From positions 1 through 47,832 of IMG/VR virus record IMGVR_UViG_3300044558_000057: a DNA stretch of 47,832 bases, one strand, 5' to 3'. Both the position numbers and the translations under genes were made by a program. Positions 1 to 47,703 of the stretch are shown here, piece after piece. The notes under the pieces were generated by a model, which had not been told where the DNA came from, searched no databases, and saw only the letters and a program-made list of their open reading frames with translations. Positions within the stretch are counted from its first letter, which is position 1; each line of letters starts with the position of its first letter. The DNA comes from a virus (taxonomy: Duplodnaviria; Caudoviricetes).

Positions 1-345
1 GGTATCCCCATTCAATACCCGTGGAATCTCTAACGCCATTTCCTGAGAGACAGTAAACTCAAGAGGATAGCATTCCGGATAAAGATTATTCTTATATATG
101 GTTACTTGAAGCTCGTCTTCTTTTATGGCATCTTCTACACGGTTTCTTATAAGGGAGTACTCTTCATAAGTAATCCAGACTTCTGATGCTGGCTCCATTA
201 ACAACCCCATCTCAAGTTTTTTCCGTGTCTGTTTATCAAATTTGAGTACGTCTTTTTTATCATCAATAGAAGTGTTAACTAAAGGTGTAGCTTCAAGCTG
301 ACTTAAGAAATTCTTATCAAAGCCTTTATAAATAACCAGTTTCAT
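1..345 (-). CDS. Hypothetical protein, N-terminal part (runs off the window edge); AT-rich flanking gene
   Basis: ATG at 345 with GGAGAAGG upstream; open frame MKLVIYKGFDKNFLSQLEATP... to position 1; missing from the ORF track because no stop lies in the window. Confidence 0.75.
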   Translation of the reverse strand, partial: MKLVIYKGFDKNFLSQLEATPLVNTSIDDKKDVLKFDKQTRKKLEMGLLMEPASEVWITYEEYSLIRNRVEDAIKEDELQVTIYKNNLYPECYPLEFTVSQEMALEIPRVLNGDT

Positions 346-495
346 ATGCCTTCTCCATAAAGTCTCTTCAAAATAAAACGTGGCGCACAGAGCCTCAGCT
401 CCATACTCCACGCAAACGTGTGCTCGATATGAATGGAAGCCCCCGCCCATTACCTCTTCCTCCCCAATATAACAGATTTCTGTTATTCCCTCCAC

Positions 496-549: not shown

Positions 550-2118
550 CTAAACCCTGATCTCCGTCCCATCCTTCATGGTCACCCGTATGTCTGTCTT
601 CGTGAACACCGTCATGTGGTCTACGAATTCCCCCCACTGGCGTTCCGAAAACTCCTGCACCGGGCCGGTTGCTTTCTCCAGCAAACTGATCACCCGGCCC
701 AATTCATCCCGACGTCGCTTCTTTGTTTCAATCTCTCCGGTGACCTTTGCCATCTGCTCCTCTGCTTTCCGATACCGGGTTTCGAGGTCGCCGTATTCCT
801 GTTGGAATTCGTTCTGGTCCATCGTCACCCGGGCGTTCTTCTCCACCAGTTTTTTTGCGGCCTCGTTCACGATTTCCATCTCGTTCTCTAATGAGGTTTT
901 CTGCTTCTCCAGTTCAGTGGTATCACAGAGCAGCTGCTGAGCCATCTTTGCATCTGCAATCTCATTGTCCTTCCCGGCGATGAACTTGTTCAGGGCTTTC
1001 ACAAACGCTTCCATTATTTCATCTTCCATAAGGTGTGGGGTTTCGCACCGATGGTCCTTGTCCCTGAATTTCTGGTTGCACTGCCAGATGACCCGACGGT
1101 ACTTGTCATTCGAATGCCAGACTTTTGAACCGAATGGGTGGCCGCATTCCCCACAGATGATTTTGGAGGAGAAGATGCTCACCCCGCTGTAATGGTGGGT
1201 CCGCTGGTTCCTCCTCGCACGTTCATCCTGCGCTTTCTGGAAAATATCCGGGTCAATGATCGCCTCGTGGCTTTTCTCGATGTAGTACTGCGGAAGTTCC
1301 CCGTTATTCTTCTTGTGCTTCTTCGTCAGAAAATCTTCGGTGAATGTCTTCTGCAGGAGGGCCGAGCCTTTGTATTTCTCATTCGTGAGGATGCTTTTAA
1401 TCAGTGACCGGTGCCATGTTGTTTTCCCGCCCGGGGAAAGAATGCCCTTCTCCATGAGCCTGTTGCAGATAGCCTGCTCTGACAATCCTTCAAGGTAAAG
1501 CCGGTAGATGCTCTTTACAATTTTCGCTTCTTCCGGGATCATCTGCATTCCTTTTCCATAGCCAAGGAACCGCTTGTAATTGACGCTTACCTTCCCGTCT
1601 CGCATGCCTTTCCTTTTGCCCCATGCGACGTTCTCAGAAATGCTCCGGGATTCCTCCTGCGCCAGTGAGCTCATGATGGTGATCAGGACCTCGCCCTTGG
1701 AATCCATTGTCCAGATGTTCTCTTTCTCGAAATAAATCTCAACCCCGCATTCCTTCAGTTCCCGGATAGTTGTCAGGGAATCGACCGTGTTCCGTGCGAA
1801 GCGGCTGACCGACTTTGTGAGGATCAGGTCAACCTTCCCGGCTTTCGCATCCCGGACCATGGAATTGAACCCGGCACGATGCTTGGTGTTTGTACCGCTG
1901 ATTCCTTCATCGGAATACATCCCGGCAAATTCCCAGTCATCATGGGCTTTGATGTAACTTGTGTAGTAATCCAGCTGCGCCTCGTAGGAAGTTAGCTGTT
2001 CGTCATGATCGGTGGAAACCCTTGCGTACCCACAGACTCTTCGCTTTGTTTTCCTGCTGAGGGGCTGGGCCGTAAACCGGTCAACTTTCGCCGGGATTAC
2101 CGTAACTCTCTTAGTCAT
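550..2118 (-). CDS. Large serine recombinase (resolvase + recombinase + zinc-ribbon/coiled coil)
   Basis: YARVST catalytic motif, KSVSRFARN, LTNEKYKG, ICGECG zinc ribbon. Confidence 0.95.
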   Translation of the reverse strand: MTKRVTVIPAKVDRFTAQPLSRKTKRRVCGYARVSTDHDEQLTSYEAQLDYYTSYIKAHDDWEFAGMYSDEGISGTNTKHRAGFNSMVRDAKAGKVDLILTKSVSRFARNTVDSLTTIRELKECGVEIYFEKENIWTMDSKGEVLITIMSSLAQEESRSISENVAWGKRKGMRDGKVSVNYKRFLGYGKGMQMIPEEAKIVKSIYRLYLEGLSEQAICNRLMEKGILSPGGKTTWHRSLIKSILTNEKYKGSALLQKTFTEDFLTKKHKKNNGELPQYYIEKSHEAIIDPDIFQKAQDERARRNQRTHHYSGVSIFSSKIICGECGHPFGSKVWHSNDKYRRVIWQCNQKFRDKDHRCETPHLMEDEIMEAFVKALNKFIAGKDNEIADAKMAQQLLCDTTELEKQKTSLENEMEIVNEAAKKLVEKNARVTMDQNEFQQEYGDLETRYRKAEEQMAKVTGEIETKKRRRDELGRVISLLEKATGPVQEFSERQWGEFVDHMTVFTKTDIRVTMKDGTEIRV

Positions 2119-26501: not shown

Positions 26502-27107
26502 TCATGGGTTTATCCCCCGTTTGAACCGGGATATTTGAACACGAAGGGGGGCGGCGGTCTCCGGGGCATCAGGCCACAGGGATCGTGGCGGCCCCACCCC
26601 ACCCGGGAATCCATCAAAACGCCTCGTTTTATATCTCACGATATCGCTGACATGCCTCTGAGATATAGAAAAAGCACTCGCAATTTCTCTTTGTGAGTGC
26701 CCTTCCGTATACAGCTCTCTTATCTTTCTTACATCCTCAGAGCTTAGCTTTGAAGCGGCAGCCTCTTCTCCGTGTCTGAGGCAAACAGCCGTTCCATGTC
26801 TTATTTCATCCTGCATGTTTTCACTTTGAGTCCCCCAACAAAGATTCTCGAGTCGATTGTCCAGAGAGTTTCCATTCAGATGGCGGCAAACATAATCCTT
26901 TGGCCTTTCGCCAACATAAGCGTTAAGTATCAATGTATGAACGTACTTCGAATCTCTTCGTGCTGGGTGCCCGCCAGTTACTACGTGCACTCTGTAGTAC
27001 CCATCATGAAATCGTTTTGAAAGCCTATGCAACTTACCGGTCCGCATTGAATATATTTCACCGGAGGGATCAGCAAAGTATCCCGGGTAGTTCGGTATTG
27101 GCTTCAT
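26502..27107 (-). CDS. HNH homing endonuclease with C-terminal HTH
   Basis: IPNYPGY...GEIYS, YVHTLI, CRHLNGNSLDNRLENLCWGTQSEN, SQREIASAFSISQ. Confidence 0.88.
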   Translation of the reverse strand: MKPIPNYPGYFADPSGEIYSMRTGKLHRLSKRFHDGYYRVHVVTGGHPARRDSKYVHTLILNAYVGERPKDYVCRHLNGNSLDNRLENLCWGTQSENMQDEIRHGTAVCLRHGEEAAASKLSSEDVRKIRELYTEGHSQREIASAFSISQRHVSDIVRYKTRRFDGFPGGVGPPRSLWPDAPETAAPLRVQISRFKRGINP

Positions 27108-27125
27108 AGACATTCCTCCCAATCA

Positions 27126-29058: not shown

Positions 29059-31566
29059 TTATAACAGTTCATCCGTAATGATGATGTTTTTTATTACCCT
29101 CCTGTTACCGAGGCTGTCCTTGCCTCTTTCCGCTGAGGGAATCGCTTCCAGCAGTTGCTTGGTGAAGTTATTCTGCGCATATGCCTTCATACCGGCATCT
29201 TCACAGTATTTCTTGTACTTGTTGAACAGTTCCGTTGACGGCACCACGCTTCCGCTCTTTTCTTCCACGCAATCTGCGATAAACGAGAGCACTGAATCGC
29301 TGTCTTCCTTGTATCGTTGTAATTCCGCTTTGTTTTTCTCTGTTTCATCGAAATGGTATCCGTTGTCCATAAGGGCTCGGAGTCCCTCCAGCGCGAAACG
29401 GAATATCCCGTCCGCTTCGCCCCGAAACTTGTCCAGTAGATCCGGGTCCCTGTCCTTCTCGGGTACGGTATGGTTGAACCGGATGATAATGAGCCTCCGG
29501 TAGAAGCCCTCGGACTTGTCACCGTAATTCCTCGGTATGTTGTTGCACGAAAACAAGAGCCTTGCCGTGCACTGAAAAGAGAACGGGTCCTTGTTCTTCT
29601 TCTCCACGGTCAGGTAGTCCTCGCCGACCAGTGCCTTAAAAATGCCGTTGTCATCTATGTTCTTCGTCGGCAGGTCGGCAAAGATGTTTGCGAGCTTCCC
29701 GAAGAGCTCCGCAGGTTTAAACCTCTCATTCAGGGCCTGCCACGACACGTTGCTGACATTGGTCCCGCCAAGCAGGATCTCATTCAATACGTTCAGGAGG
29801 ACGGATTTCCCGGCGCCTGCTGCCCCTACGATGACAAAGCACTTCTGTGCCTTTGTAATCGGCACAAGGAAATACCCGAGCATCTCCTGCAGGAGCCTTA
29901 CTTGGGCCTCATCGCCCTCCATAGAGTCATACAGGAACTTCTTGAACAACGGACAGTCTGCTTCCGGGGCATACCGGACGTTCAGCTGGATCGTCGACAA
30001 AAGGTCAGGGGAATGGTCGTACAGTTTCCCCTCGAGCACGTTGTATACTCCGTTCTTAACGTTGATCATGAACGGGTTGGAATTGAGCTCCCTTATCTCC
30101 TTGCAAACCTGAAGACGCCACTGCTTCTCTGCATCCGTGATCTGTGAAAATCGGCACTCCTGAGCCAGCATCTTTTCCTGCACCATGCGTTGTGCTGTCA
30201 TCTCCGGGATCGGGACGTAGACGCCTTCTTCATAAAGGTAGTGCTGCTCAGCTGCATAGATCACCTTCTCATTTTTCGTCATGTCATCGGCCAGCACCTT
30301 CGGCATGAATTTAAGCCCTCGTTCCGTCGGCAGGTACCAAAGAGGCAGCTCGTCTGAAACCTTGTGCTGCCTGCTCTTCAGCCCGGAACGGTACTCCCTG
30401 TTTTTCATCTTGTAGGATGACAAGAGTGCCCGTACGTCTGTTGCGCTGAACTTGAAATGTTTCTTCAGGGTATCGTTGATCACTGCAGATGCTATTGTCA
30501 CATCTTGGTTATAGAGATACTCCTCAACGTATTTAGACGCTGTCTCCATATCCGCCAGAGGCATATTCGTGATAGGTAGCTCGGCAACCAAGGCTTCCAG
30601 TCCTTCAATACTGACTGGAAGGTAGCAGAGTGCCGCCGGGGCCTTGCACTTACACTCCCCGTTTTCCAGCCTCGGGCACTTGAATCCCTTCTCCGCGATA
30701 GTCTTGCAGGTAATCGGACGTGTCCCAGATTTCAGGAAATGATTGATCTTCTCAGTGGTCTCCGCTTCCGAATATTTTGGGTAATCATGGCTGAGGGCAT
30801 GGATCATATCAACGCCACCTTCAAAGCCGGCAAGGTTTGTGATCATGGCATACCAGTCATGCTCGGAAAGGGTCTTCGCATCAGACTTGCAGTGCTTCAG
30901 GAAATCACACTCATGCATGACAATGGACAGGCCCTTCTCTGAGCCTGTCATTTTCTCCGTCGGCTTGTCCTCCTCGATTTTCGGGAGAACAGCTGCAAGC
31001 TCATCTTGCGTGTACTTACGCTCCGGATGGAAAAGCACACAGGACACCATGACCGGATTCTGCTTGCAATGGTAAAACCCCGGCAGCCTCATAACTCTGG
31101 ATTCGTTCTGGCATTTGATGTCGCCGTCAAACTGCTTCACCAGTTGCTTCTGAATCGTCCGGAAACGGCTGACCTCGGGTTTGCCTTTCATGAACCAGTA
31201 TGTATGCAGGGACTTTGAAGTCTTTATGACCATTGATGGTGGTAAGGGAAATGCATCGATGCACTTTCCCATCTCCTCAAAGCTCAGCTCATCCGATTCC
31301 ACGAACTGGGCATTGATCCGGGTAATGTCCTCATCCTTCTGGCCGCCGTAGTTCACGACGAAAAAAATACCCCGATCCATCTTGTTGTGGTCGTGCAGGG
31401 CCTTCTCCATGGTCGTCGTGTATCTGGAGCAGGCGCACTCAAGTGAGAGGCCCTTAAACATCCCGCGCTTCTTGTCGTCGAAGATCCGGAAACATACGGT
31501 CTCATCCGCATTGAACAGTGCGTTCAGGACATCCTGAGCGGAAATATTAAGAGGAACCATTTCCAT
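29059..31566 (-). CDS. Primase-helicase (RepB-type primase + P4/D5-family SF3 helicase)
   Basis: FVESD, SLHTYW, RVMRLPGFYH; GAAGAGKS Walker A; FYRRLIIIRF. Confidence 0.93.
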   Translation of the reverse strand: MEMVPLNISAQDVLNALFNADETVCFRIFDDKKRGMFKGLSLECACSRYTTTMEKALHDHNKMDRGIFFVVNYGGQKDEDITRINAQFVESDELSFEEMGKCIDAFPLPPSMVIKTSKSLHTYWFMKGKPEVSRFRTIQKQLVKQFDGDIKCQNESRVMRLPGFYHCKQNPVMVSCVLFHPERKYTQDELAAVLPKIEEDKPTEKMTGSEKGLSIVMHECDFLKHCKSDAKTLSEHDWYAMITNLAGFEGGVDMIHALSHDYPKYSEAETTEKINHFLKSGTRPITCKTIAEKGFKCPRLENGECKCKAPAALCYLPVSIEGLEALVAELPITNMPLADMETASKYVEEYLYNQDVTIASAVINDTLKKHFKFSATDVRALLSSYKMKNREYRSGLKSRQHKVSDELPLWYLPTERGLKFMPKVLADDMTKNEKVIYAAEQHYLYEEGVYVPIPEMTAQRMVQEKMLAQECRFSQITDAEKQWRLQVCKEIRELNSNPFMINVKNGVYNVLEGKLYDHSPDLLSTIQLNVRYAPEADCPLFKKFLYDSMEGDEAQVRLLQEMLGYFLVPITKAQKCFVIVGAAGAGKSVLLNVLNEILLGGTNVSNVSWQALNERFKPAELFGKLANIFADLPTKNIDDNGIFKALVGEDYLTVEKKNKDPFSFQCTARLLFSCNNIPRNYGDKSEGFYRRLIIIRFNHTVPEKDRDPDLLDKFRGEADGIFRFALEGLRALMDNGYHFDETEKNKAELQRYKEDSDSVLSFIADCVEEKSGSVVPSTELFNKYKKYCEDAGMKAYAQNNFTKQLLEAIPSAERGKDSLGNRRVIKNIIITDELL

Positions 31567-31567
31567 T

Positions 31568-31999
31568 TCACTTCACCTCCCCGAATGTGCGCACGGTCTT
31601 TTTCAGGCGCTTTGCTTCATGGATTTCCTGCTTCATCCCGTCCGATACACCATTGGCCGTAAAAACCCAGACCTCGTCTGACAAGGCCAGCAGGGACAAT
31701 CCGAACATGAGCCCAAGTTCACGCTCCGCCGGGTCGGCGTCCTTGAGGATCCTCGGGTAAAGCAGGTGACTTGCAATCGGCATATATCCTTTTCCGATGA
31801 CAAAGCGGCAGTAACGTTTCGCGGATTCAATGTTGGCATCTACGTCTCCTGCGTAGGGCGAAACGACGTAGACCTTCTTCCTGTGCGTCATCTCATATTT
31901 CTTCCTGAATTTTGCTTTCTGCTTTTCCTTGTATTCCCTCATCACATTGTTCATTGCTGCTGTGGCGGTCGGGTCCATATAACCCTCGGAATTTCTCAT
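31568..31999 (-). CDS. DUF4406-like (nucleoside deoxyribosyltransferase-like fold) protein
   Basis: VYVVSPYAGD, PIASHLLYP, SDEVWVF...SDGMKQEI. Confidence 0.75.
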   Translation of the reverse strand: MRNSEGYMDPTATAAMNNVMREYKEKQKAKFRKKYEMTHRKKVYVVSPYAGDVDANIESAKRYCRFVIGKGYMPIASHLLYPRILKDADPAERELGLMFGLSLLALSDEVWVFTANGVSDGMKQEIHEAKRLKKTVRTFGEVK

Positions 32000-32046
32000 A
32001 GCGGGTTCCTCCCTTACGATTTTTTCAGGTGATCATCATGTCCACC

Positions 32047-32070
32047 TACTACAAGCCCGAAACAACAACC
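32047..32070 (-). promoter_or_regulatory. 24-bp phage motif, copy 4 of 7
   Basis: TACTACAAGCCCGAAACAACAACC. Confidence 0.75.
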
Positions 32071-32137
32071 GAATAATAGGTGAGCTAACAGGCCCGGTTT
32101 TCTGCTATATTGGATGGGGAGGAGGTGAACCGGAAGA

Positions 32138-34492
32138 ATGCCGAAAATTACTGTAATAAAAGGAATAAATGACTTGGCAAGCCAGTATCCGCTTGTCGCG
32201 GCAGAGTGGGACTATGAGAAAAACGGCGATATCCTCCCGTCAGACATACCGGCGCATACGAATAAGAAATATTGGTGGAAATGCAGTGTATGCGGGCATG
32301 AGTGGGAAACCAGCCCGAACAGCCGAAACAGGTCAAATTCCGGTATCCTGACCGGATGCCCGGTATGCGGAAGGAAGCGCACTGCTGCCGCGCAGCGCAA
32401 GAAAGCTCTGGCAGACAACCTGCTCAAGGCATATCCCGACATTGCAAAAGAATGGGACTATAAAAAGAATCAGAAAAGCCCGGATGAAGTTACCTCGCAC
32501 AGCGGAGATTACGCATGGTGGATCTGCCCGAAAGGTCACTCATACCATGCAAGGATCTCAAACCGCACTTCCCTGAATCGCGGTTGCCCATATTGCGCCG
32601 GGAAGAAAGTACTTCCCGGATTCAATGACCTGAAAAGCCAAAACCCGGATCTCGCGGCAGAGTGGGATTATGATCGAAACGGTGAATTGACGCCTGAGAA
32701 AGTCACTGCTGGCAGCCAGAAAATAGTCTGGTGGAAATGCTCCAAAGGCCATGAGTGGCAATCGAATGTTGCAAACCGCGCTGAAAGGGGCTGCCCGTAC
32801 TGTGCAAATAGAAAAGTCCTGAAGGGATTCAACGACATGCAGACTCTGCGTCCCGATATTGCCATTGACTGGGACTACGAAAAAAACGGCGATATCACCC
32901 CGTCCGATGTAATCCCCGGGAGCAATAAACAGTTCTGGTGGAAGTGCCATGTCTGCGGATACGAATGGAGGGCATCAGGTAACAATCGTACCAGTGGCCA
33001 TGGCTGTCCAAAATGCGGCGCGAAATCTGCCGCCTTGTCTAATAGGAAACGGAATCTAATCGCCGGGAAGACAGATTTAAGAACGGTCGCACCCGAACTA
33101 ATTGATGAATGGGATTATGAAAAAAACGGTGACTTAAAGCCTGAAGATTTCACTGCTGGAAGCAGGATAAAAATCTGGTGGAAATGCAAAAAATATGGAC
33201 ACAGCTGGCAGGCGCCGATTTATACAAGGGCCAAAGGAAGTGGCTGTCCATATTGTCATTCCCACACATCATACCCTGAGCAGGCAATTTACTACTATCT
33301 TTCACAAACATATCCGGATGCCGTCAATACAGATACCCATCTCGGCTTTGAGTTGGACATCTATGTCCCGAGCATTAAGGTTGCAGTCGAATATGACGGT
33401 GTCGCTTATCACGGCCACCGGGTGCAAAAAGAAATCCAAAAAAACTCATCATGCCGGGAAGCAGGAATCAGGTTGATTCGCGTTCGTGAAAACGGGCTGC
33501 CATCATTTGAAGACTGCGGCATTATATGGGTTAAGCCAACCCCTTCTGACAACGAACTGAATGCTGCTATCACATCCTTATTTGCACACATCGGTGGTAC
33601 AGCAAATATCGATGTTGCACGGGACCAGTTGGCTATCTTGGACACTTACCATCAATATGAAGTTAACCACTCGCTCAGCACCAAGTTCCCCGACATTGCT
33701 GATGAGTGGGACTACGAGAAAAACGGAACCCTCGCTCCTGAAATGTTCTCTTATGGGAGCATGCGCAAAGTTTGGTGGAAATGCTCCAAAGGCCACGAAT
33801 GGTATGATTCTATAAACAATCGCACAAGTGAACACACTCTTTGTCCTTACTGTTCCGGAAAACGTGCCATCCCCGGCGAGACGGATTTCGCTACGCTGTA
33901 CCCTGACCTGATGAAGGAATGGGATTTTGGGAAAAACGGTAAAGTCGACCCGCACAAAATCCTGCCGAAAATAAACAGGAAAGTCTGGTGGCGATGCTCC
34001 AAAGGCCATGAATGGCAGGCGTCGATCAACAGCAGGACCAACAGGGAATCGGGATGCCCCTATTGCTATGGCAGGTTCGCCATTCCCGGGGAGAACGACC
34101 TCGCGACGACAAACCCGGAGATCCTGAAGGAGTGGTCCCACAAAAACACGGACATCGAGCCGACGGAAATAAAAGCTGGCAGCGAGCGCAAAGTGTGGTG
34201 GCACTGCGCAAAGTGCGGCCACGATTACAAAGCGGCTCCGTATAACAGGATATACGGTCACACGGGGTGCCCGTATTGTGCGAACCAAGTACCTGAGTTC
34301 ACGAGGAAACAGCGTGAAGGGCAAGAGGTCACGTCAAAGTCCGGGCAGAAAATGAAAGTCCTGCGCTACCGGAAAGCCATAGATATCGACGTAGAGTTTG
34401 AGGATGGCACCATAGTCGAACATCGTAATTATTTCAATTTCCTGAAGGGCGCGATAAAGAACCCGAATTATCCCCCGAAGATAAAACAGTAA
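32138..34492 (+). CDS. Zinc-ribbon repeat protein (8 DUF4379-like repeats) with central PD-(D/E)XK-like nuclease domain
   Basis: Eight EWDxxKN...WWxC..GHxW...CPxC units; ELDIYVPSIKVAVEYDGVAYH; GGAGGAGG RBS; TGCTATATT extended -10 at 32103-32111. Confidence 0.88.
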   Translation: MPKITVIKGINDLASQYPLVAAEWDYEKNGDILPSDIPAHTNKKYWWKCSVCGHEWETSPNSRNRSNSGILTGCPVCGRKRTAAAQRKKALADNLLKAYPDIAKEWDYKKNQKSPDEVTSHSGDYAWWICPKGHSYHARISNRTSLNRGCPYCAGKKVLPGFNDLKSQNPDLAAEWDYDRNGELTPEKVTAGSQKIVWWKCSKGHEWQSNVANRAERGCPYCANRKVLKGFNDMQTLRPDIAIDWDYEKNGDITPSDVIPGSNKQFWWKCHVCGYEWRASGNNRTSGHGCPKCGAKSAALSNRKRNLIAGKTDLRTVAPELIDEWDYEKNGDLKPEDFTAGSRIKIWWKCKKYGHSWQAPIYTRAKGSGCPYCHSHTSYPEQAIYYYLSQTYPDAVNTDTHLGFELDIYVPSIKVAVEYDGVAYHGHRVQKEIQKNSSCREAGIRLIRVRENGLPSFEDCGIIWVKPTPSDNELNAAITSLFAHIGGTANIDVARDQLAILDTYHQYEVNHSLSTKFPDIADEWDYEKNGTLAPEMFSYGSMRKVWWKCSKGHEWYDSINNRTSEHTLCPYCSGKRAIPGETDFATLYPDLMKEWDFGKNGKVDPHKILPKINRKVWWRCSKGHEWQASINSRTNRESGCPYCYGRFAIPGENDLATTNPEILKEWSHKNTDIEPTEIKAGSERKVWWHCAKCGHDYKAAPYNRIYGHTGCPYCANQVPEFTRKQREGQEVTSKSGQKMKVLRYRKAIDIDVEFEDGTIVEHRNYFNFLKGAIKNPNYPPKIKQ

Positions 34493-34497
34493 AGATC

Positions 34498-34532
34498 AAG
34501 GGCCCTGCCGTTATGGCGAGACCCTTCTCTTT
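34498..34532. terminator. Hairpin between convergent cargo genes
   Basis: AAGGG..GCC-GTTAT-GGC..CCCTT then CTCTTT. Confidence 0.5.
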
Positions 34533-34551
34533 GTTTCCGATATTCAGTTTT

Positions 34552-34857
34552 TCATGCGACCTGAAGCGTCGTCAGGCCTTGGTTTGCGTCATCTGGCTGC
34601 ACGGCGTATACATGGATGTTGCAGAAGTTCGTCCGCACCATGTCCCGGAGTGCCGTACCATGGTGGTACCCATGAATGACCTTGATGCTTGCGGGCCCGC
34701 GCAGCAGGTTGATGACGTTTCCCAAAAGCCGCCTTGCCTCCCGGCAGGACAACCCATGGAGGTCAATGTAGACCGGGCCGCCCTGCACTCCCCAAATCCT
34801 GCGAAGCTCCGTATCCGTGAGGACCATCTCCAGACGCTCCTCTGCTGCCGGTGTCAT
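34552..34857 (-). CDS. Stand-alone Smr (small MutS-related) domain nuclease
   Basis: IDLHGL...A, VIHGYHHGTALR, NQGLT: diagnostic Smr motifs. Confidence 0.85.
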   Translation of the reverse strand: MTPAAEERLEMVLTDTELRRIWGVQGGPVYIDLHGLSCREARRLLGNVINLLRGPASIKVIHGYHHGTALRDMVRTNFCNIHVYAVQPDDANQGLTTLQVA

Positions 34858-35114
34858 ACAGGCTCCCCTGCCACTGCCGGGTCCGGATCCGGATCACCGC
34901 CGTCTTCTTCCTCTTCAGGGGCTTCATCCTCACTGCTGCGATGCGGCTTCATCTTGAACCTGCCGCCTTTTGCTGTGCGTGCATCCATTTCATAATCGTT
35001 GTCGGTAACCACGCTGGCAAGTCCAAGGGCCGCAATACAAACTATTGCCAGCTTGAGCCCGCCGCCTTTACCTGAAAAGATTCCTGCAAGTGCTGTAAAA
35101 ATACTTTCGTTCAT
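34854..35114 (-). CDS. Small protein with hydrophobic segment and acidic tail
   Basis: LAIVCIAALGLASVV; GAGGAG RBS; ATGA overlap with Smr gene. Confidence 0.65.
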   Translation of the reverse strand: MNESIFTALAGIFSGKGGGLKLAIVCIAALGLASVVTDNDYEMDARTAKGGRFKMKPHRSSEDEAPEEEEDGGDPDPDPAVAGEPV

Positions 35115-35126
35115 TATATGTGCTCC

Positions 35127-36191
35127 TCATCTGAACTGGTCGAGCCAGTTCTTATACTCTTTCATTGACATTTCGCCGTTCTGAATTGCCTGTTCTTTTT
35201 CAAAACGGCCGGTTACAAGTTTTTGCTTTTTTTCTTCATAATAATCTTTGGATTCAGGATGTCGCTTCATATTCATAAGGAGGCGGGACTGCGCCTTCCT
35301 GAACATATCATTCAGCTGGTCCTTCTTCCTCTTCTGCTCGCTTTTGATCTGCGGATAAACCTCGTGGCATGTCCTCTGATAGTTTTGCGGGGAAGGATAA
35401 TTACAGTAGATCGCATTCTTCCTTCTCGCCACAAAATATTTTCCGCACTCCGGGTTCTGGCACTGCTTGATCATGGTGCCACAGTCCTGCATATGGACAA
35501 ATTCGAATGCCAACAGGGCCCGCATGCTCTGTATTTCATAGACTGTGGAAAACTTCTTACTATCCCGGTCATACTGAATCTTGACCTGCAGGCCATCAAT
35601 ATGGTCGGATGTCTCCAGTTCCGTCAGGACCCGCTCATACTGCTCATCCTGTCCTTCAACCATTTTGTTGGTTTCCTTGGCTGCCGCAGCATAGAAGAAC
35701 AGCGTCCCGTCAAGAACATCAGCAAGATAATTGAAATAGCAGGCTTTCAGGTAGCCGCCCATGTCATCAAAATGAATAGTCCCCGGAATGAAGATCTGCC
35801 GCACATCATTATCATAGAGTTCATTATTCATCTTGGCCTCAAGCGCATCCACCTCTTGTTCATTACGATCAATGACCGTCCTGAACCGGTCGATTTCCCT
35901 GCAGAAGATTGCCTTAAGCATACATACCGTAAGCGGCATATCTTCCTCTATACTGCTGATTTTGTGTTCGACATCCGAAATTGCGAGATCAATATTATAT
36001 GGATCAACATCGTCTGCTATGCGGTTGTAGTGCGTGATAAATAACCGGGGCCATGAGCGGAGGATTTCTTCGCTGTCTCCCTGCAGGAGTTCGCACAAAA
36101 GCTCCCCCGCTTTATATGTCCTGTTCACATTCAAGTCGACGATGGTGTTCGTCCCGTTTTCATACCGGATTGTCAGTCCTTTGTAACTCAT
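35127..36191 (-). CDS. DUF6076/CGNR-type zinc-finger protein
   Basis: IKQCQNPECGKYFVARRKNAIYC...TC near C-terminus; GGAAAGGA RBS. Confidence 0.7.
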   Translation of the reverse strand: MSYKGLTIRYENGTNTIVDLNVNRTYKAGELLCELLQGDSEEILRSWPRLFITHYNRIADDVDPYNIDLAISDVEHKISSIEEDMPLTVCMLKAIFCREIDRFRTVIDRNEQEVDALEAKMNNELYDNDVRQIFIPGTIHFDDMGGYLKACYFNYLADVLDGTLFFYAAAAKETNKMVEGQDEQYERVLTELETSDHIDGLQVKIQYDRDSKKFSTVYEIQSMRALLAFEFVHMQDCGTMIKQCQNPECGKYFVARRKNAIYCNYPSPQNYQRTCHEVYPQIKSEQKRKKDQLNDMFRKAQSRLLMNMKRHPESKDYYEEKKQKLVTGRFEKEQAIQNGEMSMKEYKNWLDQFR

Positions 36192-36266
36192 CTGTCTTCC
36201 TTTCCGCTGCGGGGAAGCGCTTGATCAGGTTGTCTCCACGCAGCTCTTCGCTAACGTTGTACGGAA

Positions 36267-36295
36267 AGTATAGCAGCAAAAGCATTGTATCACAA
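36267..36295 (-). promoter_or_regulatory. SigA-type promoter for cargo operon
   Basis: TTGTGA-17 bp-TATACT with TG extended -10. Confidence 0.6.
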
Positions 36296-36392
36296 TCGTT
36301 CTTGGCCGATTCTGATAGCCACATTATTATAATCGTTTATTGATAAATTCGATTGCTAACACATTGACACAGTTTGGTCAGGACCCGCATTC

Positions 36393-39242
36393 TCAATCAT
36401 CCAGTTCCTTCATCGTCCCGAATGTCCTGCCAGCCGATGCCTCTGCCACAAGCGGCAGGTCGAACTCGGGGAACGGCTTAGGCTCCATACAGCTCTTGAT
36501 ATAGTCCACCGCCTCCCGCAGCCTGTCCTCCGGGATTATAAAAGTCAGCTCATCATGGATCTGCAGGATCGGTTTGAGCCACGGCCTTTCCTGCAAACCG
36601 GCAAGGATTCTCGCACATCCCATCTTCAGAATATCCGCTGCGGTTCCCTGTATCGGGGTGTTCATGGCGCACCGCTCAGCAAATGACTTCTTGCCCCAGT
36701 CATCACTGTTAATATTCGGAAGGTACCTGCGCCGCCCAAGCCACGTCTCTGTATACAGTTTCCGCGATGCCAGCACTTTTACTTCATCCTGCCATACGGA
36801 CAGGCCCGGATATCCAGCCTTCAGATTTTCGATCATAGCGGCGCACTCCTCATAGGATTTCTCAACGCCTGCCTTAAATTTCAGTGTTCGCTGCAGCCCT
36901 CGCGGAAATAAGCCGTAGAACACACCGAAATTTACATTTTTTGCAATCGTCCGGTGTTCCTTGTAGTTAGGTGAATTCTTGTCATGCGCCTGCTCATACG
37001 GGACGCCGAACACGATGGATGTCGTCTTCGCATGCAGGTCCTGTCCTTCGAGGTAGACCTTCTTCATAGTATCGTCGCCGACCTGCCCAAGGTAAAAAGC
37101 GCCGACGCGAAGTTCAATCTGGCTGTAATCACAGCTGATAATCAGGCAGTGATCCGGAGCTTTGATGAAGTTCCGCACACCAATCGGGTCATTCGTTTTT
37201 CTCGGACAGTTGCCTGTGATGCATATCTGCCCGCCGCGTCTTACCATGATATAGCCGCTCGGAACGCTTACGCAGTAAACATTACCTCTGTACGGTTCAT
37301 GGGTTTTACTGACGTTTGTGGTTAAACTGTAATTCTTATCGATGACATCAAGCTGCCAGTTCAGTTTTGCATTGGGATTTCCATTATCGTAGCTTCTCAT
37401 ATGCGCCCTCATGCCGTTAAGTGCATAGAGGATCTGCATCCAGTCAGAATTTTCCCTGACGGAAGAACTGTAATTTTCACCTCGCGTGAAGCATCCATCC
37501 CAATGGGAAAGCTCATGCAGAATGTCCTGAACCGTTTCCTTATCAAAATCCATGACCCACGATCCCCACTTCTTCTCGTCCCCAAGGAGTGAGATGATTC
37601 TTCCTGTTATCTCTCCCTTGAAGATTCTTATATGAACTTCGCCGTTCTTCTTTTGCGTATCAGAATACCTGATATCATTTCTTTTCAGGACATCAATCAG
37701 CCTTCTGTACTTTCTCGCCTTCATGAAGCTGAATTCTATGCCGCCATCATGATAATATCCGTCGGCCTGTGTAGCTGTCAGAAGAACGACCTCGTCATGA
37801 CAGAGATGAATATTTCCGAATTCATATTCTCCCGCATGAATCTGCTTATGGTCTTCCGGGTATTCTTCCGCACTTACGACTTCAAATTTTCCTGTTCTCC
37901 TGTTCTGAATCAGGCATCTGTGGTCCTGAGTCATGCGTAGATCTATATGCTGATTTTTCAGGTGTACGAGTTCGCCATCATAGCTGTGGCATATACGATC
38001 AAGCGGTCTTACGAATGATATTTTTCCGTTCTCTTCCCATTGAGCTACAACATCGTCCTCCCGTAAATCTTTGAAAAGAATGAATCCGCGCTTTGTAAGG
38101 ATCTCGGTCTTATCATCGAAGCAGTTCTGCATGTTGGGCGCCTTGCAATTCATCCTTCCGGTCTCTGTCGACAGGGCGTAGAAACTCGGGTGGATCCTGC
38201 CGGTCGCAGGGTTAATGTGCTTCATGTAGCCGGTAATGTAAGTGCTCATGATCTTGCCCCATTTCCGGTACTGTTCCACCAGCGTGAAGAGCTCAGACAA
38301 CTCGGGCCTGTTCCGGTCGCACCACTCCCGCAGCATCTGCATCGACTGGTCATCCGCTGCCGCACGATCCGTGCCGGTAGTCTTCATGACCGGGAGCCCA
38401 AGGTCATGGTACAGGTAGTTCTTGAAAGCCATGGTGCTGCAGTTGCTGCCGATATTCACATCACCGATTATGAACGCTATTTTCTCGCGGAGCGAAGCCA
38501 TCTCCTTCTCCGCTTCCTCTTTCCGTTGCTCCATCAGTTCCCGGTCAATCGGCACACCGTTATATTTCATCAGTCCAAGGTACACCGCTGTCGGTGATTC
38601 AATATTCCTGACAATCCATTCATGCTTCGGCAGGTACTGCCTGAACCATTGATTAAAAAGATAATACAGCTGGATCGTGTAATCGGAATCAGCGCAGCTG
38701 TACTGCACCACCCTCGGATCCTGCGCATCCAGCTCATCAAACGGCCTGCCCCCGGACACTTCCTCGAAAGTATGGACGTCCTCATGCAGGAGATGCTGCG
38801 CCAGATTCTTAAGGCCCGAATCCTGCAGCTTCCTGAATTCAAAATTGCTCTTGAGCGTCATCTGGCTGGCGCAGATCGTGTCATATACCGGTGCCTGTAT
38901 CACGATTCCCTGAGCATATGTAAATGCTGACTCAAAAGCGAGGTTGTGGCAGACCTTCACCTTAGTCCGGTCCTGCGCAAATTCCTTATGAATTTTCCAG
39001 AAAGCATCCGGATCCATATTTCTTCCGGTTAAGTGGGCAATCGGAACAGAGATTCCTTCATGCGGCGCCCTGCTATAACTGCAATCGCTTACATGGGCCT
39101 TGTGCGGATCCAGCGCAGCTTTTGGATCATCGCGCCATTCGTGGTTTGCTGCAGTTTCATAATCCCATGCATAAGGTCCCGGTCCGGACAGGTAAGATGC
39201 CAGTTCTTCCGGGTCCGTCACGCTTTTATAATTCTTTTCCAT
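36393..39242 (-). CDS. polA: Family A DNA polymerase with 3'-5' exonuclease, interrupted by an intein
   Basis: WDYET, TETGRM, CDYSQIELRV (motif A), RTIAKNVNFGVFYG (B), QIHDEL (C). Confidence 0.95.
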   Translation of the reverse strand: MEKNYKSVTDPEELASYLSGPGPYAWDYETAANHEWRDDPKAALDPHKAHVSDCSYSRAPHEGISVPIAHLTGRNMDPDAFWKIHKEFAQDRTKVKVCHNLAFESAFTYAQGIVIQAPVYDTICASQMTLKSNFEFRKLQDSGLKNLAQHLLHEDVHTFEEVSGGRPFDELDAQDPRVVQYSCADSDYTIQLYYLFNQWFRQYLPKHEWIVRNIESPTAVYLGLMKYNGVPIDRELMEQRKEEAEKEMASLREKIAFIIGDVNIGSNCSTMAFKNYLYHDLGLPVMKTTGTDRAAADDQSMQMLREWCDRNRPELSELFTLVEQYRKWGKIMSTYITGYMKHINPATGRIHPSFYALSTETGRMNCKAPNMQNCFDDKTEILTKRGFILFKDLREDDVVAQWEENGKISFVRPLDRICHSYDGELVHLKNQHIDLRMTQDHRCLIQNRRTGKFEVVSAEEYPEDHKQIHAGEYEFGNIHLCHDEVVLLTATQADGYYHDGGIEFSFMKARKYRRLIDVLKRNDIRYSDTQKKNGEVHIRIFKGEITGRIISLLGDEKKWGSWVMDFDKETVQDILHELSHWDGCFTRGENYSSSVRENSDWMQILYALNGMRAHMRSYDNGNPNAKLNWQLDVIDKNYSLTTNVSKTHEPYRGNVYCVSVPSGYIMVRRGGQICITGNCPRKTNDPIGVRNFIKAPDHCLIISCDYSQIELRVGAFYLGQVGDDTMKKVYLEGQDLHAKTTSIVFGVPYEQAHDKNSPNYKEHRTIAKNVNFGVFYGLFPRGLQRTLKFKAGVEKSYEECAAMIENLKAGYPGLSVWQDEVKVLASRKLYTETWLGRRRYLPNINSDDWGKKSFAERCAMNTPIQGTAADILKMGCARILAGLQERPWLKPILQIHDELTFIIPEDRLREAVDYIKSCMEPKPFPEFDLPLVAEASAGRTFGTMKELDD
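37209..38123 (-). mobile_element. Intein (305 aa) with LAGLIDADG-type endonuclease region
   Basis: PNMQN|CFDDKTEILT...MTQDHR...TQADG...HWDG...VYCVSVPSG...ITGN|CPRK. Confidence 0.92.
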
Positions 39243-46063: not shown

Positions 46064-46091
46064 ATATAGCAAAAATAAAAAGGCTTGTCAA
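46063..46091 (-). promoter_or_regulatory. SigA promoter of repressor operon
   Basis: TTGACA-17 bp-TATATT with TG extended -10. Confidence 0.8.
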
Positions 46092-46357
46092 CAAAAAAAC
46101 ATGCCCTCATCATTTTCCGTCAACTTAGCTTCAGCGTCTTAATCGAAGCTGCTTATCGTATCAAAATGTCTCCCTTACTGCCTGCAAATGTTTACCCTCT
46201 TGCCATGTGTGTTTCCGTTTATAACGATATGTACTCTCGAGAGGATGCGGCGAGAATCCGAACAAGAATCGTATATCTCCAGAGGATAGAATGTTGCATC
46301 TTCAGTAATGAGGATGCAACATACATCTGCAACATGGTTCTTTACTAACGCTTTCGC

Positions 46358-46816
46358 TTATTCCAATTTAGAATCCAACACGGCCTCCTCTATGGTCTGT
46401 ACACATCTTCCTGTATCACCCAATACATCCTTGCTCCAAAATCTCAGTACTTTCCAGCCTTTTCCCTTTAGTTCTGCATTCACCTTCAGGTCATGACTCA
46501 TATTGTTTTGAATTTTTTCAAGCCAAAACCCGGGATGATTGCTGTGTTCCAGCTGTTCTCTCAGACTGGTATATTTCCTGCTCTGGTACCCGTCGTTAAA
46601 TCCTTTTCCGTGAAAGAACTCACTGTCCACAAAAATACAGATCCTATACTTGGCAAGAACTATATCCGGTTTCCCGGGAAGTGAATTCACGTTTTTTCTG
46701 TATCGATATCCCTTATGCCACAGAGCTTTTCGGAGAACAATCTCTGCCTTGGTGTCCTTGCTGTGAATGGCCGCCATGTTTTTGCTTCGTGCCTTGGCAG
46801 ACTTAATATCTGCCAT
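46358..46816 (-). CDS. vsr: Very short patch repair endonuclease
   Basis: RSKNMAAIHSKDTKAE, LPGKPDIV, IFVDSEFFHG, GWKVLRFW. Confidence 0.93.
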   Translation of the reverse strand: MADIKSAKARSKNMAAIHSKDTKAEIVLRKALWHKGYRYRKNVNSLPGKPDIVLAKYRICIFVDSEFFHGKGFNDGYQSRKYTSLREQLEHSNHPGFWLEKIQNNMSHDLKVNAELKGKGWKVLRFWSKDVLGDTGRCVQTIEEAVLDSKLE

Positions 46817-46818
46817 CG

Positions 46819-47703
46819 TTAATTGCCCCAGTCATTATAAAAGTTCTGCCTGTCTTCAACCAAGTGTAGAAAATCTCGGACAGAGAACAGCCAGCTCTGC
46901 TGTTTCACAGTGAATGTGGATTGTATGGAGTGAGGTACAACCAGCTGAAGATTCCTGCTAATCATCTCATCGGTTTGGTATTCGCTGATCGCGGCTTCAA
47001 GTGTAATGAGATGCTTCTTTTCAATTCTGTCGGCTTCCTCGAGAACCTGCCTCCACCTGTCCTTTGCTGTTGTCTTGGCACCAAGCATTGTCAGCTTTTC
47101 AGCGGGGTAACTTTCATCCCTGTACATTTCAATACTTGGAAATATGAAATCGGGTTTGGACCTGTTCTCCGTCACTGGAGTATGCGAATATCGGATATTG
47201 TTTGCACGGAATATGGCTTCAAGATTATTCTCGAAGGATAAGCCTGCGCGGGATTTTCTCCTGTTATTGACCGACAGAGAAAAGGCTATAAACCCGTCAA
47301 CGTCAACATTCTCTCCATCCGTAAAGCCCTTCCGGAGGCGTTCCTGAATAATGATTTTCTCCATATTCATGAACAGGGTTTCTTCACGGTCATACCAGAG
47401 TACCAGTGTGCCGTCCGGATCTCCCACAGGATCAGCACCCGAAACCGTAGAACGTGAAAATTCAGAGAACTCCTTGGTAGTCGGAAATGAGTACCCGAAC
47501 CTGTCAATAAGAAGGCCTGTAAAGTCTTCTTCTGTTTGTGGGATCTCAACTCCGATTTTCTGGAGGATCATTCTGGCCGCAAAATCAACCTTTGCCGACG
47601 GAGGATTCGTCAGGTCTGTATTGGCAACAAAGCTGTTAGAATTTTCATCTGGCCTGATATTAAACAGCCAGAACAGCTGATTCTCGATGATGCTTTCTTT
47701 TTT
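46819..47703 (-). pseudogene. EcoRII-C-terminal-family type II restriction endonuclease, 5' part missing or interrupted
   Basis: NRRKSRAG.SFE, KPDFIFP, LGAKTTAKDRWRQV; frame stays open upstream of Met 47571 but hits TAA at 47713-47715 with no start codon. Confidence 0.7.

Follow-up and report, generated by a model that had tools for sequence, protein, structure and literature searches.

The window (47,832 nt of a Caudoviricetes genome, the whole stretch of DNA that was analysed) contains a four-gene insert between the polA and DUF7768 genes of a prophage (Table 1). One of these genes, P0001, lies on the plus strand and encodes an array of DUF4379 modules around a nuclease domain. An earlier note had named the left neighbour DUF4406 and placed the gene at a polA-DUF4406 junction; the neighbour belongs to DUF7768, and three further cargo genes separate P0001 from polA. 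The gene had also been described as the only one on the plus strand. The listed long plus-strand ORFs do overlap minus-strand genes, but small intergenic ones, such as that at 46085-46348, lie outside our domain scan, in which the other 39 ORFs were hand-chosen minus-strand ORFs.

Table 1 Features of the insert, its flanks and the P0001 protein. Positions refer to the window.
Feature	Position	Strand	Remark
D5-type primase-helicase	29059-31566		next after DUF7768 gene
DUF7768 gene, left anchor	31568..31999	-	PF24963, E 1.5e-38
Insert at polA-DUF7768 junction	32000..36392	.	4,393 bp, four genes; a 2-nt gap in the empty alleles displayed
Extended -10 promoter-like motif (predicted)	32103..32111	+	no -35
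Ribosome binding site AGGAGG	32120..32125	+	12 nt before ATG
P0001 gene, DUF4379-array Vsr/EDxHD-like nuclease	32138..34492	+	open ORF, 784 aa
DUF4379 module 1	32168..32380	+	aa 11-81
DUF4379 module 2	32417..32614	+	aa 94-159
DUF4379 module 3	32621..32821	+	aa 162-228; P0001/P0002 mosaic breakpoint at its end
DUF4379 module 4	32828..33028	+	aa 231-297
DUF4379 module 5	33071..33265	+	aa 312-376; adjoins nuclease directly
Vsr/DUF559/EDxHD-like nuclease domain	33266..33598	+	aa about 377-487
DUF4379 module 6	33668..33868	+	aa 511-577
DUF4379 module 7	33881..34078	+	aa 582-647
DUF4379 module 8	34091..34288	+	aa 652-717
C-terminal module	34292..34483	+	cysteine-free (zinc-less), beta-sheet and short helix
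Hairpin between convergent genes	34498..34526	.	strong on minus strand, weak on plus strand
Stand-alone Smr-domain protein (cargo)	34552..34857	-	101 aa; E 1.4e-5, just under Pfam cut-off
Orphan (cargo)	34854..35114	-	86 aa
DUF6076 protein (cargo)	35127..36191	-	354 aa; extended -10 motifs upstream at 36292, 36275
Family A DNA polymerase (polA), right anchor	36393..39242	-	
Intein-like insert within polA	about 37212-38120		about 303 aa

The insert has a moron-like layout, with two units, each bearing extended -10 motifs, that converge on a single hairpin. The ribosome binding site attributed to P0001 is present. So is its extended -10 motif, for which the chance of occurrence in a 138-bp spacer is about 0.02, but it has no usable -35 and is absent from the sigma-70 scan list. 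The hairpin had previously been assigned to P0001 as its own terminator. Its folding is much stronger when read as the minus strand (z -4.2) than as the plus strand (z -0.9 and -1.7); it serves mostly to terminate the convergent cargo genes and is only a weak terminator for P0001.

A Pfam search, which the earlier note had proposed, matches DUF4379 (PF14311) above the gathering score over eight stretches of P0001 (E 3.1e-162; 527 bits, cut-off 24.5). The claimed order of five repeats, nuclease, three repeats and C-terminal module is borne out, and the eight seven-residue segments quoted from the repeats are correct as written, although repeats 2, 4 and 8 depart from the literal GHxW motif. The repeat scaffold, said to be fixed, is not: 37 repeat columns fall below 50% cross-repeat identity. 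No paralog of P0001 was found in its own genome. The C-terminal module matches no Pfam or PHROG family; it is present in 6 of 234 family proteins, all from the P0001 subfamily, and recurs in unrelated ORFs.

Structural comparison of the modules and the C-terminal domain covered Foldseek's top 1,000 chains. The model of module 4 matches mt-SAF33 (7PUA_Fd) with a Z of 11.5 and an rmsd of 1.2 over 71 residues. The trypanosome mitoribosome proteins mt-SAF33 and mS66 (PDB 7PUA, 6SGA, 6HIW) share the module fold with P0001, but lack a nuclease and reside in ribosomal RNA-protein particles. All solved DUF4379 domains belong to mitoribosome proteins or assembly factors and none is DNA-bound. This weighs against a nuclease aimed at phage DNA and raises the possibility that what the array reads is RNA, modified DNA or a structural feature instead of a long sequence, with the core acting as a sensor-activated, non-specific or abortive nuclease. 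The repeat number, which varies widely in the family (about 7 to 15 among the top matches), would fit such a function, as would a Vsr-like fold common to the modification-dependent and abortive nucleases PvuRts1I, AbaSI, McrC and Can2, all lower-listed structural matches.

The nuclease of P0001 retains E381, E405, D407, E418, D420, H425, E432 and K435, and all near-invariant positions of 108 family nuclease domains are kept. At position 432 these domains have Asp in 82 cases and Glu in 26, P0001 carrying the minor allele. A composite E-D-x-H-D motif is formed by E381, D407, E418, H425 and the acidic residue at 432; judged by order and fold, its residues probably correspond to those of I-Bth0305I. 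A fold search was needed because a sequence search of the domain against the PDB gave chance-level matches alone. Three matches are tied: I-Bth0305I (3R3P; Z 8.2, rmsd 3.1 over 94), Vsr (1CW0; Z 8.4) and 3HRL (Z 9.1). Pfam MTES_1575 and DUF559 match weakly, below cut-off. The core had been called PD-(D/E)XK-like. It is a predicted nuclease of homing-endonuclease type, and its fold is Vsr/DUF559/EDxHD-like, a more specific assignment than generic PD-(D/E)XK. A true Vsr mismatch-repair nuclease, for which a Pfam Vsr match and a C5 methylase next to it would be expected, was rejected, as P0001 has no Pfam match to Vsr (PF03852) and the genuine vsr is a separate gene (46358-46816).

The architecture of P0001 is not new (PMC10448857, PMC12350094, PMC5513546). 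Previous descriptions cast the family as putative homing endonucleases whose zinc modules have been shuffled (PMC10448857, PMC12350094). PMC12350094 presents putative HEGs of phage introns that join CapR/DUF4379/DUF723 modules to EDxHD/Vsr-like nucleases and have thousands of unannotated UniProt matches. Like P0001, these proteins combine tandem zinc modules of about 60-70 aa with a Vsr/EDxHD-like nuclease. They have 3-5 modules distantly related to DUF4379 and a C-terminal nuclease and are intron-borne, whereas P0001 has eight canonical DUF4379 modules flanking a central nuclease, an extra C-terminal module, and a free-standing gene, antisense in a four-gene insert; the activity of both is putative. 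The NUMOD/HTH N-terminal region of the I-Bth0305I type is absent from P0001, which has DUF4379 modules instead; among EDxHD/Vsr-like enzymes it therefore belongs at most to the outgroup of PMC12350094. I-Bth0305I itself (EDxHD family, 3R3P; PMC3239194) shares the nuclease fold and the E..D..E..H..D/E set, but has NUMOD/HTH motifs, is intron-encoded and is a proven cutter, while P0001 is a predicted one with its last Asp changed to Glu.

A second group of relatives (PMC10448857) comprises T5orf172 HEGs with CapR/DUF723/'DUF4397' bead-on-string zinc fingers, HEG islands and Odn; we take 'DUF4397' as a misprint of DUF4379. As in P0001, repeated zinc modules are predicted DNA readers encoded near replication genes, and repeat deletion, domain swapping by recombination and domestication for conflict are described. 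The nuclease family is a different one, however, the phages are lytic, and the cargo is essential rather than accessory. Putative Marseillevirus 'restriction endonucleases' likewise pair a DUF4379 array with a restriction-fold nuclease, but come from an amoebal giant virus and have four DUF4379 domains, fewer than P0001 (PMC5513546). The DUF4379-array nuclease family as a whole is large (7,942 of 7,999 candidates), with thousands of members in bacteria, archaea, phages and giant viruses. No biochemical test of any member was found in the literature searched.

C2H2 zinc-finger arrays and TALE repeats consist of tandem modules with few variable residues beside a conserved one. P0001 shares this arrangement, but its fold differs, and its modules, about 70 aa long and old (44-62% DNA identity), have two variable patches and no small residue alphabet. 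We searched for a repeat code as positions variable between modules yet kept between orthologs, ranking the quoted variable positions by retention. They rank 20, 6 and 7 of 37 across 24 ortholog groups, 36, 4 and 19 of 37 in the P0001 ortholog group, and, when looser pairs are binned by nuclease identity, 23, 25 and 17 of 28, which does not single them out; retention among orthologs is seen in one of three tests. The second patch behaves like the first, and two key positions show 169 different residue pairs across 1,133 repeats. The conservation tests are mixed, and the earlier proposal of repeat-coded, potentially reprogrammable DNA recognition stays a hypothesis.

It would be a bold reading, and one that we regard as unlikely, that DUF4379 arrays are natural modular DNA readers, each module reading a few bases through its two patches, which are retargeted by block swaps and form a widespread single-gene anti-phage weapon of prophages and tRNA islands. 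This weapon would be the long central-nuclease form, which, if the reading is true, would amount to a naturally occurring zinc-finger nuclease whose code is transferable. Transferable modules would make this a new protein scaffold with programmable DNA binding and a single-gene defence of a new class; otherwise, P0001 would be one more homing-type cargo gene. As for an array that reads structure or modification, ortholog retention of the two surface patches fits sequence readout better, and no common sensor or partner gene recurs among the 150 of 223 neighbours scanned. We consider such a structure- or modification-reading array quite improbable.

Six close homologs of P0001, 51-92% identical, are all open full-length ORFs with the catalytic set, and their intactness over this range implies sustained selection. 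P0001 and P0002 differ in modules 1-3 and are identical from module 4 onward; modules 1-2 are absent in homologs P0016 and P0025. These whole-block swaps and losses among close alleles are new here and support the suggestion that module blocks are naturally exchanged. With its defined empty junction, the locus provides a natural experiment. Judging by contig depth, the close alleles of P0001 appear to share one slot; a close ortholog locus was not found in viral, metagenome or genome scans. A nuclease query of 85 other genomes of the genus gave none either. That absence, and a few family loci that are split or lack the nuclease, would suit a passenger that is decaying or neutral and currently functionless, but the open frame, full catalytic set and intact homologs make this very unlikely.

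The cargo-free junction anticipated by the earlier note exists in relatives. It is empty in 8 of 8 and in 39 of 42 of them, at about 50-77% polA identity, and none is a near-identical empty allele. In the other 3 of the 42 loci the slot holds an orphan, an antirepressor or, in locus L267, a small HNH. Nine distant DUF7768 loci from a class search were uninformative, having short flanks and no close polA. In run X11, a joint from 31747 to 36509 does not match the empty junction that was expected and was excluded.

The prevalence of empty alleles and the HNH in the same slot are what a selfish free-standing homing endonuclease might leave behind. In related phages without the insert, such an enzyme would cut its cognate region, be it the 3' end of polA, the junction or DUF7768/primase. 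Break repair would then copy the insert in, the three other genes travelling along as passengers and the host gaining nothing. The position of P0001 in the replication module is consistent with this, as are the likewise polymorphic intein-like insert of polA and matches to phrog_559 and phrog_3339, phrog_559 proteins being found in group I introns. The domain set also agrees with the putative HEG outgroup and HEG DNA-binding arrays already published (PMC12350094, PMC10448857). Cargo pieces from runs X14 and X15 match the window at 99-100% identity and 5' polA pieces at about 88-90%, a pattern that recent spread would produce, but the contig pieces are not physically linked. The missing near-identical empty allele argues against homing, as does the central nuclease of P0001, which is C-terminal in the intron-borne proteins. 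In addition, no operator-like similarity links the promoter region to any of six candidate target regions (between 25 and 40 of 40 shuffles scored equally well). Homing remains a serious contender, though one we doubt, and the evidence slightly favours lysogen defence over it.

Our preferred reading, held tentatively, is that P0001 is a nuclease derived from homing endonucleases, which the lysogen probably produces and which is predicted to cut competitor phage DNA. Its modules would line up on DNA like beads on a string, flanking the cut on both sides; each likely contacts DNA via a short helix ending in an invariant Arg and the loop before the WWxC strand, and the whole array would sum to a long, rare target. 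The antisense gene may be expressed from its own extended -10 while phage genes are silent, and a cut in incoming DNA would block the competitor. If the target lay in the polA-DUF7768-primase region of a related phage, repair from the prophage could also spread the insert, and module-block swaps between alleles would change the target.

The intact catalytic residues of P0001 and its six homologs are consistent with this defence role, as are the Vsr-like fold matching 3R3P, 1CW0 and 3HRL, the moron-like layout, a slot that accepts other passengers, and the restriction and defence-like genes surrounding the prophage. Precedents are Odn (PMC10448857) and gp210 interference (PMC11620839). On the other hand, the close alleles seem confined to one slot, as those of a homing gene would be. 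The PADLOC matches of P0001 are marginal (best DruE3, E 3.7e-5, one module), with no full-length system match with partner genes for P0001 and no match at all for the three cargo proteins.

Further support for defence comes from a distant clade that is not site-bound, although its nuclease shares only 40-46% identity with that of P0001. Ten loci of this clade are positioned after 7 different RNA genes. The L138 and L139 proteins share 97.8% identity. L138 nonetheless follows tRNA-Leu(TAG) and L139 tRNA-Pro(TGG), and the DNA common to both loci begins at the tRNA end and extends no further than the stop codon. Near-identical proteins at different tRNA genes, often near defence-like genes, are new here and are a poor fit to a site-bound homing element. 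Of 59 loci, 10 have PADLOC matches among the first downstream genes, compared with 4 of 85 distal controls, an enrichment that is weak (p 0.02, or 0.07 with two kin pairs collapsed; neighbours partly hand-picked). The tRNA link is not seen in metagenome (1/29 vs 2/159) or viral loci (0/4). Among 21 tRNA-anchored loci, seven have an att-like 13-25-nt duplication of the tRNA end, which is therefore not general; four have a 10-nt one at chance level and ten have none.

The plus-strand nuclease gene singled out by the earlier note is an open frame encoding a 784-aa protein, P0001. Pfam matches DUF4379 (PF14311, 'probable treble clef zinc finger') in eight stretches (E 3.1e-162), and the middle domain is a Vsr/DUF559/EDxHD-like nuclease. 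The eight 7-residue segments quoted after GHxW occur exactly in P0001; the 'fixed scaffold' around them was overstated, as the repeats are just 44-62% identical as DNA, with 37 columns variable. A residue survey found the nuclease domain in 108 of the 121 top homologs. In these 108 domains S378, E381, E405, D407, E418, D420, G421, H425 and K435 vary little or not at all, and all are present in P0001, which has Glu at position 432 (Asp in 82 domains, Glu in 26). That a gene so preserved is a neutral passenger we regard as highly improbable.

P0001 is a real, well-formed member of an already described kind. Proteins with three to five CapR/DUF4379/DUF723-like domains and an EDxHD/Vsr-like nuclease have been described as a large unrecognised homing endonuclease outgroup (PMC12350094; EDxHD is defined in PMC3239194). 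Such zinc fingers have been called beads on a string, and the genes carrying them lose repeats, swap domains and have been domesticated as Odn (PMC10448857). Marseilleviruses combine four DUF4379 domains with a nuclease (PMC5513546), a lytic phage carries an opposite-strand Hef-like gene (PMC3296691), and phrog_559, which P0001 matches, is reported from group I introns with a VSR signature (PMC11878797). Two preprints touch on DUF4379 briefly. The literature consulted reports no assay of a DUF4379-array nuclease; supplements, for example of defence screens, may list members. At least 7,942 of 7,999 scored candidates pass an E-value of 0.001, and phage records gave 225 weak matches, many annotated as homing or Hef-like endonucleases. 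Among top homologs, arrays of varied length with the nuclease in the middle are the rule.

Our preferred reading, held tentatively, is that P0001 is a homing-endonuclease-derived, site-specific nuclease that the lysogen would likely make and that would cut the DNA of competitor phages; we infer its DNA binding, cutting, expression and target alike. Interference competition is one role that a homing endonuclease can play (PMC11620839). Pure selfish homing, a possibility we rate lower, follows closely, and free-standing endonucleases can cut hundreds to thousands of bases away from their own gene (PMC2988022). The two readings would merge if P0001 cuts the cognate region in related phages. A nuclease that senses structure or modification is less probable than either.

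The behaviour of one clade bears on the homing alternative. At 15 of 60 genome loci of the family, many of the 15 being kin, the 600 bp upstream contain the end of a tRNA or tmRNA, versus 24 of 580 other ORFs there; this holds for just 1 of 29 metagenome loci and none of 4 viral loci. Ten loci of a single clade (nuclease 66-100% identical) lie behind seven different RNA genes. Two members, at loci L138 and L139, are 97.8% identical and sit behind tRNA-Leu(TAG) and tRNA-Pro(TGG), and their common DNA is confined to the stretch between the tRNA end and the stop codon; pairs at least 70% identical mostly have no common flank. This is not what a homing element tied to one site would be expected to do, and near-identical members at different sites argue against site-bound homing for this clade. 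A conserved leader of ~350 bp, containing a terminator-like hairpin and a strong sigma-70-like promoter, starts at the CCA end of varied tRNA/tmRNA genes and leads into the DUF4379 nuclease gene; at L128 and L131 it is preceded by a duplicated tRNA 3' end. No integrase was seen beside the leader loci. The leader looks like the end of a mobile island or a cassette. The clade is 40-46% identical to P0001 in the nuclease, so that it informs the role of P0001 without deciding it. Pfam scans of 150 of 223 neighbours found no recurring partner gene. In a PADLOC scan of 80 of the 223, partly picked after the Pfam results, first downstream genes matched at 1e-8 in 10 of 59 loci versus 4 of 85 distal ORFs (p 0.02, or 0.07 after collapsing two kin pairs).

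An AlphaFold2 model of P0001 from a six-sequence alignment (mean pLDDT 80, pTM 0.38) predicts well-folded modules without a fixed overall shape. The modelled nuclease matches 3HRL (Z 9.1), Vsr 1CW0 (Z 8.4) and I-Bth0305I 3R3P (Z 8.2, rmsd 3.1 over 94), which are tied. Among 997 chains aligned, the sole matches to the modules were trypanosome mitoribosome DUF4379 proteins (7PUA_Fd, Z 11.5, rmsd 1.2 over 71). The model places the quoted segment at a beta-strand end and in a short helix closing on an Arg that is kept in 95% of 1,133 repeats. Neither Pfam nor PHROG has a family for the C-terminal module, which was seen in 6 of 234 family proteins and is similar to numerous unnamed Atlas clusters. 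One ORF, at locus L006, carries four tandem copies of this zinc-less module.

The window is a prophage (serine recombinases, GH25 lysin, tail, head, terminase, primase-helicase, polA, SNF2 helicase, repressor), and its gene content and Atlas taxa point to a Bacillota host. The cargo-free junction proposed earlier was found: polA and DUF7768 abut in all 8 viral contigs with polA (10 were found with DUF7768), which are close kin of one another, and 2 nt separate stop and start in the five junctions printed. Another 43 loci included 42 with both genes, whose aligned ends lie less than 100 bp apart in 39; the other three hold other inserts, and none of the 42 holds this nuclease gene. These relatives are just ~50-77% identical in polA, and no near-identical empty allele was seen among them. 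As the junction abuts in relatives, the 4,393 bp between these genes in the window are an insert of two convergent units, at a small hot spot. At L236 a transposase-like ORF of 442 aa (IS110-like by eye) interrupts the primase gene. Cargo genes recur just once among the family loci, as a Smr homolog (43%) at L116, two genes downstream of another DUF4379 nuclease.

Coordinates of features in the window and at related loci (L + number)
Feature	Location	Strand	Remark
Insert	32000-36392		two convergent units
Insert unit 1		-	DUF6076, 86-aa orphan, Smr protein
Insert unit 2	32138-34492	+	nuclease gene
DUF4379 modules 1-5	aa 11-81, 94-159, 162-228, 231-297, 312-376		family-built profile
DUF4379 modules 6-8	aa 511-577, 582-647, 652-717		family-built profile
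Extended -10	32103-32111		upstream of nuclease gene
Promoter-like site	34409-34437	-	within nuclease gene 3' end
Intein-like insert	37212-38120	-	in polA, ~303 aa
HNH_3 + HTH gene	26502-27122	-	free-standing
Prophage flanks	46358-47571; L275, L276	-	EcoRII-C, true vsr and other genes (see below)
Junction occupant	L235:8614-9851		orphan 105-aa gene
Junction occupant	L236:5867-6764		Bro-N/ANT antirepressor
Junction occupant	L267:6751-7161		136-aa HNH
Transposase-like ORF	L236:7644-8972		in primase gene
Smr homolog	L116:11901-12281		
Conserved leader loci	L138:7650-10108; L139:7659-10099; L128; L131		tRNA-linked clade
Tandem C-terminal modules	G020:C47:59455-60276 (L006)		four copies

The intein-like insert in polA has a Cys start and Asn-Cys end (weak Pfam intein match, E 0.15); it is absent from every relative judged (two loci were too short) and, among the matches listed, is skipped in near-identical alleles of sequencing runs X11 and X15. 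The HNH_3 gene, flanked by those for the packaging HNH and the terminase small subunit, is a second homing-endonuclease-like gene. One side of the prophage has EcoRII-C with a true vsr, a C5 methylase with IS elements after it, a PLD-ResIII helicase, an HNH and an AAA_21 pair; the other has a NERD-UvrD protein and a DEAD helicase of large size. The setting is defence-island-like.

Of the signals ascribed to the nuclease gene, the extended -10 is present but absent from the sigma-70 scan list, and by a chance estimate the motif occurs in ~2% of composition-matched 138-nt sequences; the same kind precedes the repressor and DUF6076 genes. A hairpin does lie 3' of the stop, but its strong fold is confined to the minus strand (z -4.2 versus -0.9 and -1.7), so that it mainly serves the convergent minus-strand genes and is only weakly the gene's own terminator. 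Just beyond it, the minus-strand promoter-like site, one of a chance-level number, could renew transcription toward DUF7768-primase and yield antisense RNA.

Close homologs P0002 and P0122 are 96-100% identical to P0001 from residue 219 onward, whereas their modules 1-3 (76, 58 and 72%) are nearer to P0003 (84, 80 and 98%); P0016 and P0025 are without modules 1-2. Alleles were surveyed among the matches listed in assembled contigs of 4 of the 23 runs listed, whose pieces are unlinked and whose assemblies are possibly chimeric. X11 holds three forms: one the same as the window up to 32862 and diverging beyond, one window-like over 32624-35009 and unlike thereafter, and one encoding P0016 peptides. 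A contig of equal depth to the third matches DUF7768 and the gene upstream of an ssb-like gene; the equal depth suggests a single contig, with P0016 in the same slot as P0001. In X15, five cargo pieces differ from the window by 0-2 bases versus 55 in 563 for a 5' polA piece; X14 is similar, and X18 is near-identical to the window almost throughout. These comparisons support exchange and loss of module blocks in nature well, and no more than suggest that the cassette has spread between backbones. The locus adds alleles in which modules have been swapped in nature, together with a defined empty junction, and these make the question of a repeat code directly testable.

A new defence class that uses a transferable code seems unlikely to us. 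Base-specifying positions should be kept between orthologous modules yet differ among modules. Segment positions 3, 5 and 6 are the variable ones (3.3, 3.5 and 2.9 bits) and favour S, N, T, A, H and D, with 169 residue pairs at positions 5-6 across 1,133 repeats. Across 105 ortholog-like pairs from 78 proteins in 24 groups (segment left out of the definition), their ranks among 37 variable columns are 20, 6 and 7, with a mean excess of 0.56 versus 0.47; a second patch, the loop that precedes the WWxC strand, has ranks 1, 3, 8 and 15. In the five-protein group of P0001 the three positions rank 36, 4 and 19 and have no excess on average (0.40 versus 0.41); in a looser set of 730 pairs, binned by identity of the nuclease, they rank 23, 25 and 17 of 28. 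These ranks fit two patches under position-specific constraint that is reset fast between subfamilies; they do not demonstrate a code, and inter-module packing could also produce them.
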